From: an uncultured Lentisphaerales bacterium
GTDB lineage: Bacteria; Verrucomicrobiota; Kiritimatiellia; RFP12; UBA3636
Assembly (NCBI GenBank): GCA_964553035.1
Contig: CAZKJH010000003.1
Location: 767-64,766, forward strand
Direction: 5' to 3'
DNA length: 64,000 nt
In this document: positions 8,701 to 46,003 of the stretch, in pieces
How the letters are laid out: every line of letters starts with the position of its first letter
Position numbering within the stretch: position 1 is the first letter of the stretch
Made by a program: the position numbers and the translations under genes
The notes under the pieces: generated by a model
The model's database searches: none
Told to the model about the DNA's origin: nothing
What the model saw: only the letters and a program-made list of their open reading frames with translations

Positions 8701-11700
8701 TCACATCTGCACATCCGCGGCATAGCAGAGGTACTTGTCGCAAACAGAGAGCATTCTGGCGAGAAAATCATCGGAGAGAGAGGTTCCGAAGAGGGTTTTA
8801 TTGGAAACGTTATCACCATCGCCTGGACGATAAAGACCGTCATTGCCCTTGAACCCATACCATTTTTTTGAAGCCTTTTTAACTTTCTCCTGCATGACAA
8901 CTTCTGGTAAATCCCCGTCTTTCCCTTTTTCCTGATAACCAGCGAGGGCCATCGCGTCAGCAATTAACATGAGGGGCTCGGGATCGCCGGCCATCGCGGA
9001 CATCATGCCGTCAAAATACAAGTGAATGCGCTCCTGTGCGAGTTCTGCGGTTTCGGGAGGAATCGATTGAATCACGCCAGCCTCATGAATGTAAATCGAG
9101 GTGCCGAGGGTCATGCCGTTTACGTTAATTTCAGCAAAGGGAAGCAGAGCCGTCTGTATAGAAAGCTTCATCCAGTCTTTCAACTTGAGCGAACTCGGCC
9201 GCACCGTCATGAGCCTCACGTCCGTACCATTCGTATAAAGATTGCCGATTTTTCCAACCAGCACTTTGTCACCAAAGGTGACCCGCACCGAAGCAGCTTC
9301 CGGCAGCGGCATCCAGCCAGAAAAAGCCGTCCGGACGCGTTCCGCCATTTCACCAAATCCGTCCAGTGTTTGTTTAACCATCTGCTCACCGCGCACACCA
9401 ACGGGCAATTTTCCGTTGCAACGGAACAGGGCGACACATTCTGAAATGCGCTCGGGATCTTTGAGCCAGGTATCATCAGGACATCCTGCCTCGAGAAACT
9501 TTCGGACGATCAAGTCCTTCATGAGATATTTATCCAGCCCATTAACCACCACCGGTTCATCATCGCTGTAAGTCGCCGCTTCGCTCTCCTTGTAAATCTT
9601 CAGCACGTTTTTCAGGAAGGTCTCGGCGGGTGCGCCCCAAAATTTAATCAGATCATCAGGGGATATTTCTTCCCTCGACAAGTATTCGCAGTCGCTGGTA
9701 CATCCCACTGTCAACTTCTCAAAAATCCCTTGTTCTTCGGCATCCTTGAATTCACTCAAGGCCGCCCTTGCGCCAAGCTGAGTCCGATAATTACAGAGTG
9801 CTCCGGCTGAAGAAAAATCTTCCTGAGACAGATTTTGCCACAGACGTTGCGTATCCTCTTTTCGCCAGAAGCCCGCTTCATCAAAGTACTCCGGCGCGAA
9901 ATGGTGTAGGTGGTGGCGGAGTTCGAACGCTGCCACCTGTTTCCCTGCAACGACTGCGTTATCAGCATCACCGAAGGCTTGCACCAGCTCGCTGCGGATT
10001 TCATTCAGCAACACGCCGGGAGGGATCGGCTTGTTGTCATGCGCATTGCTGCCAACGTAGGAGAAGCGCAAATAGCGCCGTGCGGAAAGCAGTGCCTCAA
10101 TGAGTAGCTGGCAATCATCATCGCGATCCGAGCGATCGCCAGGACGCTTCGTATTCTTGAGTAAGTCGAAGCTGCGACGCTTGTCACGCCGCGGATATTC
10201 GTTATCATTCATCCCCGCGATCCAGATGTATTTCGCGGGAATGTTACGCAGCGGCTGAAGACGACAAAAGGTAATGCCACCTGAGAGGAAGCGACCCGCA
10301 TCGGCTACGCTCCAGAGTGTACTTTCAAGATAGGCACTAATGATCTCGCACGAGAGAATTAAATCATCCGCACCGGCATCGGCACAGGTAGTGCGAAGTT
10401 CGTCTATCGATTTTTTGAGCATCTCGGCATCGCGAATGCTCATGTTATCCGTCGCAAGAAATTCGTCAATCATCGCGAGCAAAAGCCTGCTCCATTCCTC
10501 TGGCATCTGTGTCGTCGTGAGCGTCTCGCCCAGCGCATAAACGCGCGTGGCAAGGTCGGCAACTGCCCCCAGCGCACGCCCAATGGAATCGTTCATTTCC
10601 CTGCCGCTATGTTCGCCTTCCAGATCCGTTCCCAGCACGTAAGCGCGCGCCAGCGCATTGAGTCCTTGAACCCACGAATTTTCTTCAAAGCCGACACCAC
10701 AGACTTTGCGTCGATGCTCTGCATCCCAGCCCCAGCGAATTCCGCTGTCGTAGAGATGCGCCATCACGAGATCGCGATGCGCTTCATTCTCGATGCCGAG
10801 TTTATCCCAGATCGCACGGAACGAAAGCAGTTCGCGAAATTCGTTGAACTTCATGCGCCCCCGCCACTGCGACAACAGCATCTTGTAAGCGTTTGCGAGC
10901 TGGCTCTCCTCGGCATGGGGGCGGTCGGTGATGGAGTAGTGCAGAAACCCACGGGCGCGATGCTTCGTGTTCCAAAGCCCGAACACGGCATCAATGGCAG
11001 GCGCATATCTGGAAATATCCGGTGCCATCACCACGATGTCATGCGGCTCGAGTAGCCCTCCCCTGACTAATGTGGGATCGAGATGACACAGGATGTCATC
11101 ACGCAGGATTTCCATCTCACGCATTTCACTATGGCAAATGTGCATGACGAGTGAATCATCCACGCTGTGGTCGCTCAAATTCGGATCGTCGTTCTCGAGA
11201 ATCGCCGTCTGGAGTTCATCGAGAACGGTGTGCGACTCGGCCTCATCCCACAACTCCTCGACCGCTCCGTATTCTTCAAGGTCCAGCAATTGATTGAAAA
11301 GCGCTTTGCCAGATTCTGCCAGTGACGTGAGAAGTTGGTTGCCCATCTTCGTGGCAGAGTCCTCACCGTGCCGCTGACGCCAAATCGCCTGACGCTCCGT
11401 CGTGTTGTCGCCCCAGAATTCGCGACAAGGATTGAGGTAGAAAAATTGCACATCCACGAAGGTGGCAAGCTTGCGGAAGAGATCGACTTGGAGCGGTGGC
11501 ATGGTGCCGATACCGAAGACAAACACCCGCTTTGTTGGAAAAGACTTCTTCGCAAGCTCCCCCGCCTCTGCATCGAGTTTTCCATCGAGAAAATGGCAGA
11601 ATAACTCGGCCGGCGATTTTCCGCCGGTGGCAGCGTGTAGACTCTGCCACAACTTTTTCTGCCACTGCGCATGCGTGGCAAGTTCGACTTCGGGCCGCGC

Positions 11701-12197: not shown

Positions 12198-12227
12198 AGT
12201 AGCGAGTAGCGAGTAGCGAGTAGCGAG
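12198..12227. repeat. Heptanucleotide microsatellite (AGTAGCG) x4 in the recC upstream / rpoC downstream intergenic region
   Basis: GCAGTAGCGAGTAGCGAGTAGCGAGTAGCGAG read directly. Confidence 0.9.
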
Positions 12228-39502: not shown

Positions 39503-39886
39503 TTTTTGGAATTGGGTTTTTGACAAGATTGCAATACCCACTCCACTAAGCTTCTTGTTCTTCTCGCCCTTCCGGTTAAAAACCCTTCGCCACTCACCTC
39601 AGCCTCCTCTGCACATTAAACAATTCGTATAATCCGTGTTTAATCCGTGAATCACGATGCACGCCCCTCGCTTTAGCTGCTCTAAAATACCACCCGAAAA
39701 GCCAAGCTACGTTTAAACCGAAAGTATTACTTTACATTTAGACGTCCTAAGCGCCAAAAAACTCACGTCATCCGGAATTAAAATTGAACTTTAATTTTGC
39801 ATAATTTCATTTATATCATTGGATGTAAGTACTTTACCATGTAATACTTTTTATAAATAGCGTTTATTTTCACTAACTTTTATGCA

Positions 39887-39909
39887 AAATTAAAATTGAA
39901 TTTTAATTT
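39887..39909. promoter_or_regulatory. Perfect 23-bp AT-rich palindrome AAATTAAAATTGAATTTTAATTT, ~50 bp upstream of the ATPase gene (putative operator)
   Basis: 11-bp arms around a central G. A related copy ATTAAAATTGAACTTTAATTTT sits at ~39777-39800. Confidence 0.4.
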
Positions 39910-39955
39910 CGCGTATTTTATGGTATGATATTTTCACTTCACAAGGAGACCGTCA

Positions 39956-41140
39956 ATGATCTATCGAAATATTACTCCTCATCTGGAAAAACTCGCTACC
40001 TTGTTCCCAGTTGTTACGATCCTCGGGCCTCGGCAGTCGGGAAAGACAACGCTGGCGCGTATGACATTCAAAAACTATTCATACGCCAACCTCGAATTGC
40101 CGCCGGTGCGGCAGCTTGCACGCGAAGACCCACAAACTTTTTTTGTTAACTTTCCGGCCCCCTTGATCATCGATGAAGTCCAACATGCCCCTGAGTTGCT
40201 GAGCTATATTCAGGTTTTCGTTGACGAGCACAAAGCGCGTGGGCAATACATTTTGACGGGATCACATCAGCCACTCCTTCAGGCAAAAGTCACCCAGTCG
40301 CTGGCAGGACGTACCGCCTTGCTGACACTGCTCCCACTCTCTTTGCCCGAACTTGCCAATGCTGGATTTTCAATGGACAGGGACGAGTGGCTATTTAAAG
40401 GATTCATGCCCAGGATTTATGATGAGTCAATTCCGCCGACATTGCTCTATGAGAACTACTACCGGACCTACGTCGAACGAGACGTCCGGCAACTCATCAA
40501 CGTGAAAGATCAAAATGCTTTTGAAACGTTCGTACGCTTTCTCGCAGGGCGTGTGGGGCAGGTGGTCAATCTCGAAAGCATGTCCAACGACATCGGCGTC
40601 TCGTCCCCCACCTTGGCCGCATGGCTTTCCGTGCTCGAAGCGAGTTATATCGTTTTCAAGCTCCATCCCTATTACAACAATTTCGGGAAACGACTGATCA
40701 AATCCCCAAAAATCTACTTCACGGATGTGGGTCTGGCGTCGTACCTGCTTCGAATTGAAAATCGTGATCAAATCGCTCGGGATCCGCTTATCGGAGGCCT
40801 TTTCGAGAATCTTGTCGTACTCGAGGCACTCAAGGCACGTTACAATGCAGGGCTTTCTCCTGATTTATATTACTTCAGGGATAGCAGTGGACTTGAGATC
40901 AACTTGATTCTGGATCAGGCACGCCAACTACACGCCTTCGAAATCAAATCGTCCAGGACGTGGAACTCAGCATTCGGAAAGAATATGGGGAAATTCCGTG
41001 AAAGAATTTCCAGCCTTCTTTCATCCACAGTTATCTATTCAGGTGAGCCCATAGCTGGCAGCGAAAGCCGCCCCTCATGCGTCCACTTCACTAACACAGC
41101 AAGCCTGTTTGTCAAGACGCCAGAAAGCGTTGGGCCTTAG
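39956..41140 (+). CDS. AAA+ superfamily ATPase of the COG1373 / AAA_14 + DUF4143 type
   Basis: Walker A GPRQSGKTT, Walker B LIIDEVQ, C-terminal KIYFTDVGL. AAGGAG SD. Sits in a low-GC island. Confidence 0.8.
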   Translation: MIYRNITPHLEKLATLFPVVTILGPRQSGKTTLARMTFKNYSYANLELPPVRQLAREDPQTFFVNFPAPLIIDEVQHAPELLSYIQVFVDEHKARGQYILTGSHQPLLQAKVTQSLAGRTALLTLLPLSLPELANAGFSMDRDEWLFKGFMPRIYDESIPPTLLYENYYRTYVERDVRQLINVKDQNAFETFVRFLAGRVGQVVNLESMSNDIGVSSPTLAAWLSVLEASYIVFKLHPYYNNFGKRLIKSPKIYFTDVGLASYLLRIENRDQIARDPLIGGLFENLVVLEALKARYNAGLSPDLYYFRDSSGLEINLILDQARQLHAFEIKSSRTWNSAFGKNMGKFRERISSLLSSTVIYSGEPIAGSESRPSCVHFTNTASLFVKTPESVGP

Positions 41141-41163
41141 ATAAGATTATAGCAGCGCCATTC

Positions 41164-41404
41164 CCTGTGGCAAAGTGGACACCCTGCCACAGGCATCTCC
41201 GCATCCGCACCACACGCCGAGCGGCTGGGTGGCAGCCTCATCTCGTATTGTAATCTCGACATTTAGTTCAAGATTACGGTGGCGTAATTGCCTGTGGCAA
41301 AGTGGACACCCTGCCACAGGCATCTCCGCATCCGCACCACACGCCGAGCGGCTGGGTGGCAGCCTCATCTCGTATTGTAATCTCGACATTTAGTTCAAGA
41401 TTAT
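41164..41404. repeat. Tandem duplication, 2 x ~127 bp (114 bp identical per unit), each unit with a 9-bp-stem hairpin CCTGTGGCA...TGCCACAGG and a GGCTG...CAGCC hairpin
   Basis: Direct sequence identity between 41164-41277 and 41291-41404. This explains the duplicated peptides in minus-strand ORFs 41147-41389 and 41274-41618. Confidence 0.85.
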
Positions 41405-41425
41405 AATGACGAGATTGCTTGTGTC

Positions 41426-41942
41426 CATAATCGGTCAGCCATCGGGGGGATGGGTGAAAGTATTTTGCGGGGGTGACGCCTGAGATCTGCTCTGCTGTGC
41501 TATCAACCCAGTTGTCGCAATAAGCGCGGTGCGGTTTTAAACACAGAGAGTTGGAGACACAGAGATTGAGCCACTGGGAGCGATATGCTTCCAGCCTGTG
41601 CAAACGACAAACAGGCAAGATGCCTGTTCTCCCAGTAGGGCAACATTTTTCTGTCCACCCATTTTTCTGTCCCTCTCTACACTAAAACAAGGGGCATATC
41701 TCTAGAAATCCCCGATACCGATTTTTCGTTTTGGATCCCGATACCGATACCGATTTCGATTACAGACGCGGAGGTCTGCATCGCTCCAGTTTTCTAGTAA
41801 AACAAGAGACAGGCGTCTAGAAATTGCGGCCAATCAGGAGATTGGCTCTCCTATTCCCATCCCTCTGTGCCTCAAACTCTCTGTGTTTAAAACCCAAACC
41901 CCATTACCCACATACTTGCCCCCGGTCACTGACCGATTACGA
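41426..41942. repeat. Non-coding element with nested inverted repeats (MITE-like or structured-RNA candidate)
   Basis: Outer IR TAATCGGTCAG...CGGGGG at 41426-41450 pairs with 41916-41942. Inner perfect 20-bp IR GGTTTTAAACACAGAGAGTT at 41533-41552 pairs with 41878-41897. Internal short repeats TCTAGAAAT x2, ATTTTTCTGTCC x2, CCGATACCGAT x2. Confidence 0.7.
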
Positions 41943-43165: not shown

Positions 43166-46003
43166 TCACTTGTCAAACACCAGCCATGCCATCCGTTCCT
43201 CTCCTGAATCGATCGGTGGCGGTAGTAGGGTCTGCGACTCATAGCCGCCCAGCAGATCCGCGACACGTGTGACACCGAACCTAAGTGCCCTGCACGTCTT
43301 GCGTTCAATTCCGAGCGAAGCAAAAGGCAGCCGCAGGGTCACCGCCCAGTAGTCCGGTCCTTGCGTGGCTTGAGCAGTCCAGCGATGATTCTTCGGTGAC
43401 CCCAGAGTACTGAGGCGCTCTTCTCCTCCAACAGGATTGACATCGTTCATGGCACGCCCCGCGTAGAACTCGCGGGCGCCAAGCGAATTGACCATGAATC
43501 CACGGCTTTCCTCGAACTGGCTGGGGTACACGACGAAATGCACTTGATCATCGGGCCCAAGATCGTTTGGATCAAGCGGGTCGGCTCGCACAAGCTCCAT
43601 ACGCGGCTCGCGGCACATAATCCCGACGTAGAGCCCTGCGTCGTCATAGCCGGCACGCCAGGTCGTAACCCGTCCGGTTTTCATTTTATCCGGAGCGACA
43701 TGCAGAGGCGGAGCTTCCGGTAGCGAATCCCACTCGCCCCCTGCGGGAGATCCATTGATCTTGGGTGCTTGAGTAACCCTCTGACACCGGTACACGTAGC
43801 CACCCGGTGCTTCGCCGATATAGGCGGGAAAGAGCGGACAGCCTGGCTTCAGCCGCCGGGCAACGCGTGGGAATTCCTTTGCCAACAGTGTCTTCAATTC
43901 ACGCATGCGCCAGCGAATCAGCTCCGGGAAGTACTTGAAGGCTCCAGCCTCCGGGCAATAGCCGAGGCGCGGATTCCGTTCGACCAGCGGCAGCAGCAGC
44001 CGGTCTACTTCGATCTCGCGCCTCACAAGCGTCCTCATGGTGTCCAGCAACGTGCGACGCTTGTTGCCGCAACTGTGGGCCAGTCGTTCACGCAGGGCAT
44101 AGAATGTCAGAATGTTGACGCCGCTTTCGAAGTGCAGTTCCAGTACCCGGGCCAGATCGATCTGTCGCTGACGCTCTCGATTCCCGATGGCGGTCGGATG
44201 CAAGGCTTCCAGCAGGCGCACACCACGCCCCCAGCGATCGCGCATGCGAGTGCACAACGTGATGATTTCGCTGAGCGTGTGATAGCCCGTGCAATTTCCG
44301 ATGATGTCGCCACCCGGCGAATCCGGACGCCAGTTGCCGCCCAATTTTAAGCCACGGGGCTCAAGGTAGAGCGGCCATACCGGGCCGTTGTGCATAGGGC
44401 CAAAATAGCTGAACCCGATGGACACCGGATAGTGGGCGTAGGCGGCACTGAAATGCTTCCAGGCGCGCACAACCGTTGGAGCGTGGATCCCCCAGTCGCG
44501 GCGTGCCTGGCGATCAAGAAAGGCCGCTTCTGTATCCGGAAGAGGCGCGAAGGCAAGGTCGCCTGCGGCTCGGTTCATCAACGACGGATCGTTGCCGGAG
44601 CCCCAGTTCTGTAAAGCACCGCTAACGCCCAGCGCATGCATACCCTGAAACCGCTGGTAGAGGTTTCTAGGCACCGGGATGTAGGGGACGCTGGCCAGTT
44701 CATGCGAACAGCCAGCCATGATCTTGGCGTAAACCGTCGTACCTTTTGCTCGGGCCGCTTGCGCACAGTCGCGGAACAGGGTACTCGGTCCCGGAACGGA
44801 CAACCAATAATCGTCCGCGCGCCGAATCTTTCCCAACTGGCGAACCTTCGCCGCGCTATCGTAGTTGTGCAGGAGGACGACCTTCGGAGGGACATGCGCC
44901 GCAGCATCGCGAGTCAGGCGCTCTCCCCAGCAAACGTATTGCGAGTAAGGCCAAGCGATGAACTCCGCTTCAGGATCGGCGGTGTGAACGCCGCGTTCCA
45001 TCGCCGCCAACGTATCGCGCAGCACGTCCCGTGGAGCACGCTTCGAACAGCGGGGGCAGCGGCTCGGACGGACTCTCGCCTCATAAGACCCCGAGTAGCA
45101 GTGCGTGGACCGTTCGCCGACGCAGATGACGATCAGTCCGCCCAGACCTGGTGCTCCGGCCATGAGCTTCCGGAATCCTTCGGCAAGGGCATCGCAGCCC
45201 TGCTTCGTGCTGGTGCAGTAGTAGGTTATCCCGTGCGCATCGCCGCCCAGCAGATGCGGATGTTTCGCACGCAATGGGCTGCCCGCCGAAAATGATTTCG
45301 GCTCATTGAGGTAAAGATAAAGCCGGATGCCATAGCGTGCGTAACGCCGCACGCGCTCCCGGAGTGCCTCAAACAGAGATTCTGGTGGTGCCTCGAACTC
45401 CGGCACGATACGATGAGGATAGAGCAACTCCATCGGCAACATCACGCCGTTGACACCTTCGTGCGCCAGTCGGTTCAGGAACTCATCCGGAAGAATATCG
45501 AGCCCGATGTGGTCGAACATGCCTACGTGGAATTCGATCCGGCGACGGATAACCGCCGTACGCGTGATGACTTGCACGGGCAGAAACGGGCCACCACGCC
45601 GCAGCATTTCGTCTTCCAGATAAACTAGCGCACGGCGAAACCCTTCTGTGCTGCCGCTCAACACGACGCAGTCTGTCCGGCCGATTTCGATTCGGTAGGA
45701 TTCATCGCATGATTCGCCGGTACACCTGAACCGCAGCCGATAGTCTCCGGTTTCCGGGATACCCGCCGCATGCAGGAAACGCTTGAAGTCCTGAAAGGCG
45801 GTTTCCAGTAGCCCGTCCGGATCGGACGGCCCTCCATCCACCGTAACGCCGCTGGTCAGCGACACCTCGTCGACTCGCGGCTGTGTGCGTTCCCACTGAA
45901 TCGGCTCGCCATGCAAGGGCTCGGTCAGCTCGTGCAGAAAAGTAGTGTCCAGTGGCTGGTCAGGGATAGGGTAAAAATAGCGGGAGTGGATTGGTTTAGT
46001 CAT
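43166..46003 (-). CDS. Hypothetical 945-aa cytoplasmic protein; TIM-barrel-like hydrolase region plus C-terminal carbohydrate-binding (CBM9-like) domain
   Basis: No signal peptide. Cys-cluster CVGERSTHCYSGSYEARVRPSRCPRCS. Head of the co-directional glycan locus. Confidence 0.45.
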   Translation of the reverse strand: MTKPIHSRYFYPIPDQPLDTTFLHELTEPLHGEPIQWERTQPRVDEVSLTSGVTVDGGPSDPDGLLETAFQDFKRFLHAAGIPETGDYRLRFRCTGESCDESYRIEIGRTDCVVLSGSTEGFRRALVYLEDEMLRRGGPFLPVQVITRTAVIRRRIEFHVGMFDHIGLDILPDEFLNRLAHEGVNGVMLPMELLYPHRIVPEFEAPPESLFEALRERVRRYARYGIRLYLYLNEPKSFSAGSPLRAKHPHLLGGDAHGITYYCTSTKQGCDALAEGFRKLMAGAPGLGGLIVICVGERSTHCYSGSYEARVRPSRCPRCSKRAPRDVLRDTLAAMERGVHTADPEAEFIAWPYSQYVCWGERLTRDAAAHVPPKVVLLHNYDSAAKVRQLGKIRRADDYWLSVPGPSTLFRDCAQAARAKGTTVYAKIMAGCSHELASVPYIPVPRNLYQRFQGMHALGVSGALQNWGSGNDPSLMNRAAGDLAFAPLPDTEAAFLDRQARRDWGIHAPTVVRAWKHFSAAYAHYPVSIGFSYFGPMHNGPVWPLYLEPRGLKLGGNWRPDSPGGDIIGNCTGYHTLSEIITLCTRMRDRWGRGVRLLEALHPTAIGNRERQRQIDLARVLELHFESGVNILTFYALRERLAHSCGNKRRTLLDTMRTLVRREIEVDRLLLPLVERNPRLGYCPEAGAFKYFPELIRWRMRELKTLLAKEFPRVARRLKPGCPLFPAYIGEAPGGYVYRCQRVTQAPKINGSPAGGEWDSLPEAPPLHVAPDKMKTGRVTTWRAGYDDAGLYVGIMCREPRMELVRADPLDPNDLGPDDQVHFVVYPSQFEESRGFMVNSLGAREFYAGRAMNDVNPVGGEERLSTLGSPKNHRWTAQATQGPDYWAVTLRLPFASLGIERKTCRALRFGVTRVADLLGGYESQTLLPPPIDSGEERMAWLVFDK

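Follow-up and report, generated by a model that had tools for sequence, protein, structure and literature searches.

The 64-kb window, which is the whole stretch of DNA from an uncultured PVC-like bacterium that we analyzed, carries directly 3' of an ATPase gene a head-to-tail array of two units followed by the stump of a third. We think that this region is probably a REP/BIME-like array, made of a non-coding, non-autonomous mosaic module built from two different palindromes, here called HA and HB. The copies are dispersed, lie mainly outside genes, and occur in clusters; they have been amplified in tandem, turn over fast, and have been homogenized. As far as our searches tell, this is a previously undescribed family of a known kind, the bacterial interspersed palindromic repeats, and not a new system. 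We do not claim membership in the REP family proper, because the window has a single cluster, there is no REP tag, HA is AT-rich, the two palindromes of a module are unlike each other, and no RAYT was seen in the ORFs of the window or in those flanking HA elsewhere.

According to the repeat finder, the true extent of the repeat is 41143-41427 (Table 1). Three junctions at 41143, 41270, and 41397, spaced by 127 nt, surround two near-identical bodies. They follow the pattern AAGATTA, 14 variable nt, and C(C/T)TGTG, and their likeness to each other is only 70-74%. The array thus reads J1, HB, about 56 nt, HA, a 13-nt linker, HB, about 56 nt, HA, and J3, where the segment of about 56 nt between HB and HA contains a GGCTG/CAGCC hairpin. 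The period of 127 nt is no multiple of 3. HA is an AT-rich 28-bp palindrome of the form GTAATCTCGA-N8-TCAAGATTAC, with two matches in the window against 0.01 expected by chance. It is the most conserved and most diagnostic part of the unit, and hence the signature of the family.

An earlier note on this DNA had described a 127-bp tandem duplication 3' of the ATPase gene, and TRF indeed reports a tandem repeat at 41160-41403 (period 127, 1.9 copies, 99% matches, score 481), with 113 of 114 bases the same between 41164-41277 and 41291-41404. The note had counted two hairpins per unit. Both of those it named, CCTGTGGCA-N12-TGCCACAGG and GGCTG-N5-CAGCC, are present in each copy, the second being one that a sister strain has not conserved (see below). 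The count itself was too low, since HA had been missed and each unit has three hairpins (HB, GGCTG/CAGCC, and HA). The minus-strand ORFs created by the repeat (80 aa and 114 aa), which the note regarded as spurious, have neither a Pfam match nor a homologue; exact look-ups of both and a homology search run with the 80-aa ORF gave nothing. We agree that the units are not classical terminators, because the GC-rich stem followed by a U-tract of an intrinsic terminator, or any T-run or terminator-like site, is absent from both strands of the units in the window and in the related loci L052 and L049. Nor are they a CRISPR array, given that the segments between palindromes are identical between copies, that it is the HA centers that vary, and that no cas-like gene was found near the array among the window ORFs.

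Table 1. Positions of the array components and of their neighbors in the 64-kb window
Feature	Position	Strand	Remark
HA right-arm remnant GACAAGATTGC, upstream of the ATPase gene	39522-39532		
AAA_14/DUF4143 ATPase gene	39956-41140	+	Pfam; neighbor of the repeat, not part of it
J1, lone HA right arm AAGATTAT and 14-nt linker	41143-41163		Begins 2 nt past the ATPase stop codon
HB copy 1, CCTGTGGCA-N12-TGCCACAGG, core GTGGCA...TGCCAC	41164-41193		0 expected by chance
GGCTG-GGTGG-CAGCC hairpin, copy 1	41223-41237		Read in the sequence
HA copy 1, TATT and GTAATCTCGA-CATTTAGT-TCAAGATTAC	41246-41277		28-bp palindrome at 41250-41277; repeat finder and pattern scan
J2 linker GGTGGCGTAATTG	41278-41290		Joins HA copy 1 to HB copy 2
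HB copy 2	41291-41320		0 expected by chance
GGCTG-N5-CAGCC hairpin, copy 2	41350-41364		
HA copy 2	41373-41404		28-bp palindrome at 41377-41404; final base T, not C
J3, AATGACGAGATTGCTTGTGTCCA	41405-41427		23-nt decayed start of a third unit
MITE-like element, 512 bp	41428-41939		Directly after J3; a different repeat from the array

Within the window, the module is found at this locus only and there is no second cluster. Beyond it, an exact-pattern scan for HA found 60 metagenome contigs, 17 of which share one metagenome of origin, and one match in viral contigs. The palindrome extends past the scan pattern in around one third of the sites (5' ATT in 18 of 54 and 3' CAAT in 10 of 54, with less than one expected). 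Many contigs have 2-4 HA copies spaced by 60-130 nt, such as L056 with four copies around 60 nt apart, and there are tandem arrays with identical intervening DNA in L075 (68-nt period, three times) and L099 (65-nt period, twice). The extended palindromes, the clusters and arrays, and the 17 contigs from a single metagenome show that most HA matches represent a real family rather than chance. Across this family, variation is found in the inner stem and in the center, with central 6-8 nt that are unlike in most copies, but hardly at all in the outer seven pairs (GTAATCT/AGATTAC). Some stem changes are two-sided (TCTGG/CCAGA in L078 and L095, GCAATC/GATTGC in L103), and several copies are perfect palindromes straight through the center.

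The genes around HA are diverse. Two relatives were reached via an unrelated gene, the amidohydrolase. In L037, HA lies between PFOR and TauE, and in L041, the DNA from a PIG-L gene to PNPase holds HB and, 11 nt further on, an HA-like palindrome. Copies between called genes are also found in L049, in L083, and in the window itself (between the ATPase and an amidohydrolase). A Pfam analysis of 61 ORFs flanking HA revealed ordinary, unrelated families (e.g., LacI-type regulators, glycoside hydrolases, dehydroquinate synthase, cytosine methylase) and no recurrent transposase, integrase, or ATPase. With a crude stop-to-stop ORF call, intergenic HA sites occur in convergent, tandem, and divergent settings, and 32 of the 60 sites are inside ORFs. 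Most of these ORFs are short and probably spurious, in high-GC repeat DNA, and the minority of matches in real long ORFs probably arose by chance.

The second palindrome, HB, is GC-rich and of the type GTGGCARRGT...ACYYTGCCAC. It is found beside HA in at least five lineages, with a gap of 7-17 nt in the window, L052 (twice), L049, L041, and L083 (twice), and half-HB motifs (GGTGGCAGAGTC) adjoin HA in L086/L094, L103, and L111. A search by nhmmer with one HA-to-HA unit matched L095, L111, L083, and L078 over nearly the entire length, though weakly. In both relatives and metagenome contigs, HA and HB recur jointly or singly in intergenic DNA by unrelated housekeeping genes. A scan of species-representative genomes for the HB hairpin of the window (CCTGTGGCA-N12-TGCCACAGG) returned 34 single matches in unrelated phyla, which we attribute to chance because none extends past the 30-nt pattern. 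The window itself has an HB-like palindrome, GTGGCAGCGTGTAGACTCTGCCAC, at 11627-11650, which we also treated as chance and not as a copy of the module, as it lies inside recC (in the Exonuc_V_gamma domain). A passage of PMC3733652 does put intragenic REPs in repair genes on record.

The same locus could be followed in sister strains. The two-unit array is also present on contigs from other sequencing runs (L050-L052), whose ATPase is 97% identical to that of the window. When the window is aligned with L052, the linkers of unit 1 pair with those of unit 1 and the linkers of unit 2 with those of unit 2. J1 is orthologous between the two (common CCATTCCCTG), as is J2, and at the position of J3, L052 retains only GGTG. 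The two-unit array is therefore older than the split between these strains. Yet, the nucleotide identity is 97.3% in the ATPase CDS and 78.9% in the array, i.e., the array (21% divergence) has changed around eight times faster than the neighboring gene (2.7%). The two units of L052 are 79% identical to each other, whereas the two bodies in the window hardly differ. Since the array is ancestral and diverges fast, the near-identity of the window bodies must reflect secondary homogenization and not a recent duplication; the simplest mechanism would be gene conversion or an unequal exchange involving both units. The parts kept between the strains are HA, the HB core GTGGC...GCCAC (also conserved in L049, L041, and L083), CGTATT before HA, and CGGTGG after it, the latter being found at several loci. 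The GGCTG/CAGCC hairpin, helix 2 of the alignment, is not kept and has unpaired positions in both L052 and L049. The short-read assembly of the source samples lacks 41194-41910: the unitigs with the window's own ATPase (L001/L002) reach precisely to 41193, the final base of HB, and those bearing the amidohydrolase (L115/L116) start at around 41911, in the right end of the MITE-like element. Such breaks are expected if the intervening DNA is repeated.

These comparisons bear on the other explanations of the array. The earlier note had treated it as a simple duplication, which is incompatible with its ancestral state. A chance, recent, and functionless local duplication of a unique sequence would fit the near-identity of the copies and the single locus in 64 kb, but the sister strain, which comes from other samples, has the same two units with orthologous although diverged linkers, and the palindromes are present at many unrelated loci. 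The unit is thus neither unique nor lacking in conservation, and we regard such an accident as very improbable. The note had also listed REP-like elements, an RNA module, and protein-binding sites, and had proposed to look for a dispersed family and to fold the unit. The finding of the palindromes at 60 metagenome loci and in relatives, mostly between ordinary genes, backs the REP-like option. As for the RNA option, the units could be genes of structured RNAs, transcribed in tandem as small RNAs from the minus strand, which runs into the ATPase in antisense, or cis-elements forming a module of the ATPase 3' UTR. One unit folds with -46.2 kcal/mol on the plus strand (z = -2.6) and with -54.6 kcal/mol on the minus strand (z = -5.1), the latter far better than shuffles. 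On this strand, G-U pairs stand in for the A-C mismatches of HB and HA, and there are sigma-70-like sites at J1 and J3 (TTGCCA/TGGACA-16-TATAAT, 11 of 12 matches). However, these sites are missing in the orthologous array of L052 and in L049, and over ten modules, the better-folding strand is the one corresponding to the window's minus strand in six and the opposite one in four. The counts of wobbles against mismatches, when oriented by flanking motifs, are 3 against 0, which is too few. In a five-sequence alignment, the stems are maintained through sequence conservation, and covariation is not above that of shuffles (292 of 500 reach the observed score). No Rfam family was matched at the gathering threshold or at E < 10, either locally (best score of 21 bits versus a threshold of 100) or in 80 kb from 20 related loci. 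The lack of a consistent result in three strand tests argues against a conserved strand-specific RNA, and the pattern fits sequence recognition on a hairpin or a dyad-symmetric duplex. Considering the absence of Rfam matches, the unconserved promoter-like sites, the lack of strand bias and of covariation, and the fast divergence of the array, together with the presence of HA in all gene-orientation contexts, we find the RNA explanation unlikely.

A different view would take HA as the site of a site-specific recombinase (lox-, dif-, or attC-like), with the units and the ATPase gene as cassettes bounded by a core, AAGATTAC. The loxP and FRT sites have a 13-8-13 geometry, and HA with its flanks can be written in this way (ATTGTAATCTTGA-N8-TCAAGATTACAAT, with 13-bp inverted arms around a variable 8-bp center) or as 11-6-11. 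Direct copies of the right arm, with AAGATTRC half-sites, stand on both sides of the ATPase segment (GACAAGATTGC at 39522-39532 and ATAAGATTAT at 41141-41150). Where the window retains only GACAAGATTGC, L050 has a complete HA around 290 nt upstream of the ATPase, and L049, whose ATPase is 89% identical and lies in a different genomic context, has a full unit around 300 nt upstream of the gene. HA is thus within 350 nt of the ATPase gene in two of the four independent ATPase lineages, which would not be expected of a repeat dispersed purely at random and which counts against the REP-like explanation. We rejected a general link between the two, because the ATPase is found in none of the 60 HA loci and the 79%-identical ATPases of L053 and L117 have no HA nearby. 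The same observations speak against recombination sites, as does the fact that the homology between the window and L049 does not break off at HA, but at the stop codon and at a point 70 nt before the start codon, and that the 3' end of the ATPase has only a half-site. In most copies, the central 6-8 nt differ and would not allow mutual recombination. Contrary to what is seen in loxP, FRT, or dif, the outer and not the inner positions of the arms are the most conserved, many copies have unrelated centers, and there is no recombinase nearby: no RAYT/Y1_Tnp, integrase, or recombinase was identified in 20 window ORFs or in the 61 HA-flanking ORFs. Hence, recombinase sites seem to us a doubtful explanation. 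With its invariant GTAATCT/AGATTAC arms and lox-like 13-8-13 geometry, HA could also be recognized by an uncharacterized, non-RAYT system of recombination or single-strand transposition in PVC-like bacteria, which would move short non-coding modules and occasionally whole cassettes such as the AAGATTRC-bracketed DUF4143 ATPase segment, but we find this unlikely. Finally, HA could serve as an operator for a dimeric regulator that binds DNA, or for a nucleoid protein, whose binding sites the array would multiply. This would explain why each arm hardly varies in its outer seven base pairs when the inner stem and center do, and the several palindromes that are perfect through the center suit recognition of a duplex more than of a hairpin. 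Still, the sites are found both where convergent genes end and upstream of genes, the neighboring genes have no common function, and the tandem arrays turn over rapidly, which makes a dedicated operator rather improbable. Protein binding to the conserved arms is possible as part of the REP-like model.

The REP-like explanation can be compared with what is known of such elements. Passages of PMC2817692 and PMC3733652 define REPs and BIMEs and describe the REP/BIME mosaics of gamma-proteobacteria (E. coli, Stenotrophomonas, Pseudomonas, Xanthomonas) as mobilized by RAYT transposases. Like them, our family consists of short (24-34 bp), imperfect, extragenic palindromes that are dispersed alone, paired, or clustered, and its module has two palindromes and two intervening segments, arranged head-to-tail. 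The sequence between palindromes is poorly conserved, and the turnover is far above that of neighboring genes. Both palindromes form stems in every fold and are within the 20-40 bp of REPs (HA 28-34 bp, HB 24-30 bp), and they are extragenic if one sets aside the minority of metagenome pattern matches in long ORFs, which look like chance. REPs exceed 100 copies per genome; here, we count dozens of contigs plus relatives, but one cluster in the 64-kb window. There are also differences. Neither HA nor HB has a GT(A/G)G or CGTC tag outside the stem, since the GTAA at the start and the TTAC at the end of HA, and the GTGG of HB, are all within the stem. Classical REPs have a GC-rich stem; here, the stem of HB is GC-rich and that of HA, the signature element, AT-rich. 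Unlike in BIMEs, the palindromes of a module (HB, 56 nt, HA, 13 nt, repeated) are unrelated sequences and not one REP in alternating orientation. RAYTs are single-copy per genome, and no Y1_Tnp was seen in the 20 window ORFs or the 61 HA-flanking ORFs. The host, an uncultured PVC-like bacterium, differs too.

Other known repeats and systems resemble the module in part. REPINs are REP doublets that form hairpins in Pseudomonas fluorescens (PMC3116915). As in REPINs, the family is a population of related short elements, and some members are long fold-backs centered on HA, as in L089 (CAGGGGATTATTGTAATCTTGAA...TTCAAGATTACAATAATCCCCTG). In contrast to REPINs, the window unit is no doublet of inverted identical REPs and has no known cognate RAYT. 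In L089, HA is centered in a 51-nt perfect fold-back and there is a direct repeat of more than 190 nt (640-830 and 1520-1710, around 880 nt apart), which indicates that some family members are far longer than the unit in the window. The BOX elements of Streptococcus pneumoniae have a modular boxA-boxB(n)-boxC structure with defined A and C end modules. They share with our module its modular non-coding nature, a tandem-variable internal module, a stable predicted fold, and the intergenic scatter, but their sequence and host are unrelated and no equivalent end modules were identified in the array. Integron attC sites have the consensus cores R''/R' RYYYAAC ... GTTRRRY; these are missing from the unit and there is no integrase in the neighborhood. 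The units are no MITEs, as they are bounded by direct and not inverted copies of HA. A type III toxin-antitoxin system (ToxI-like) was rejected, because no ORF with a homologue or Pfam match lies between the array and the next plus-strand gene, and because the array on the minus strand leads into the antisense of the ATPase gene and not into a toxin gene. DGRs and retrons were dropped, their defining partners or motifs being absent. A full-text literature search for the HA sequence returned primers and shRNA loops only, and one on extragenic palindromes of PVC phyla gave nothing specific.

How would such copies spread? By analogy with RAYTs and REPs, a trans-acting enzyme may recognize the conserved arms on the hairpin or the dyad-symmetric duplex and thereby spread them, and the arrays could grow and shrink when the repeated palindromes slip or recombine unequally. 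We found no empty site, which would have been proof of mobility. If transcription reads through the end of the ATPase gene, the stable hairpins in its 3' UTR might hinder 3' exonucleases or partly terminate transcription, as is the case for REPs. Any such effect on the ATPase transcript would be a by-product and not a dedicated function, and the module probably matters little for the biology of the neighboring genes. Should the same hold across the genome, an uncultured PVC-like lineage would have a REP/BIME-like family without the GTAG/CGTC tags shared by almost all REPs described so far, which would imply that a different enzyme or process spreads the copies. In practice, the module interrupts short-read assemblies, precisely where its palindromes lie, and yields spurious ORF calls. 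It also marks a spacer that holds at least three different repeats.

This spacer, between the ATPase and the amidohydrolase, has 850 nt and is a nest of repeats. The amidohydrolase, which is similar to N-acetylglucosamine-6-phosphate deacetylases, is the next plus-strand gene, around 600 nt downstream of the array; its synteny with the closest relative fails, as MutS is found upstream there. The MITE-like element that follows J3 has perfect 11-nt terminal inverted repeats (TAATCGGTCAG at 41428-41438 and 41929-41939) and is possibly flanked by a TA duplication. It is around 90% identical to an intergenic stretch of a relative, located between a sulfatase and a DeoR regulator (L040, 4649-4883), and L052 has the same left end after its array. 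It contains a nested insert of around 240 nt (41604-41842), missing in the copy of L040, which lies between 32-nt inverted arms (41533-41564 and 41863-41894) and has direct repeats of its own (CATTTTTCTGTCC twice, CCGATACCGATTT twice, and a 27-nt pair at 41683 and 41798). A 29-nt stretch of this insert (41608-41636) has a small hairpin, AACAGGCA-AGA-TGCCTGTT, followed by CTCCC. It is 100% identical in L049 (2019-2047) and occurs twice in L037 (2649-2674 and 2695-2720), in both cases between convergent genes, and is probably another dispersed hairpin or terminator-like element of the lineage.

Upstream of the ATPase start, there are two inverted copies of an AT-rich motif, GGAATTAAAATTGAACTTTAATTTTGCA (39773-39804 and 39880-39911). 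One copy is kept around 50-70 nt upstream of the ATPase homologues in L049, L053, and L117, even where the remaining upstream DNA is unrelated. Judging from this placement, the motif is likely an operator or promoter element of this clade of DUF4143 ATPases. In the same upstream region, around 135 nt (39619-39753) are missing in a sister strain (L050, 115-119), with flanks that are 92-94% identical. Elsewhere in the window, the short spacer between rpoC and recC has a perfect heptamer repeat, AGTAGCG, in 4.3 copies (12198-12227), beside a hairpin with a T-run. Downstream of the amidohydrolase, the minus strand has an ORF of 945 aa (43166-46003) that matched no Pfam domain at E < 0.01; it is among the genes called in Logan contigs as well.
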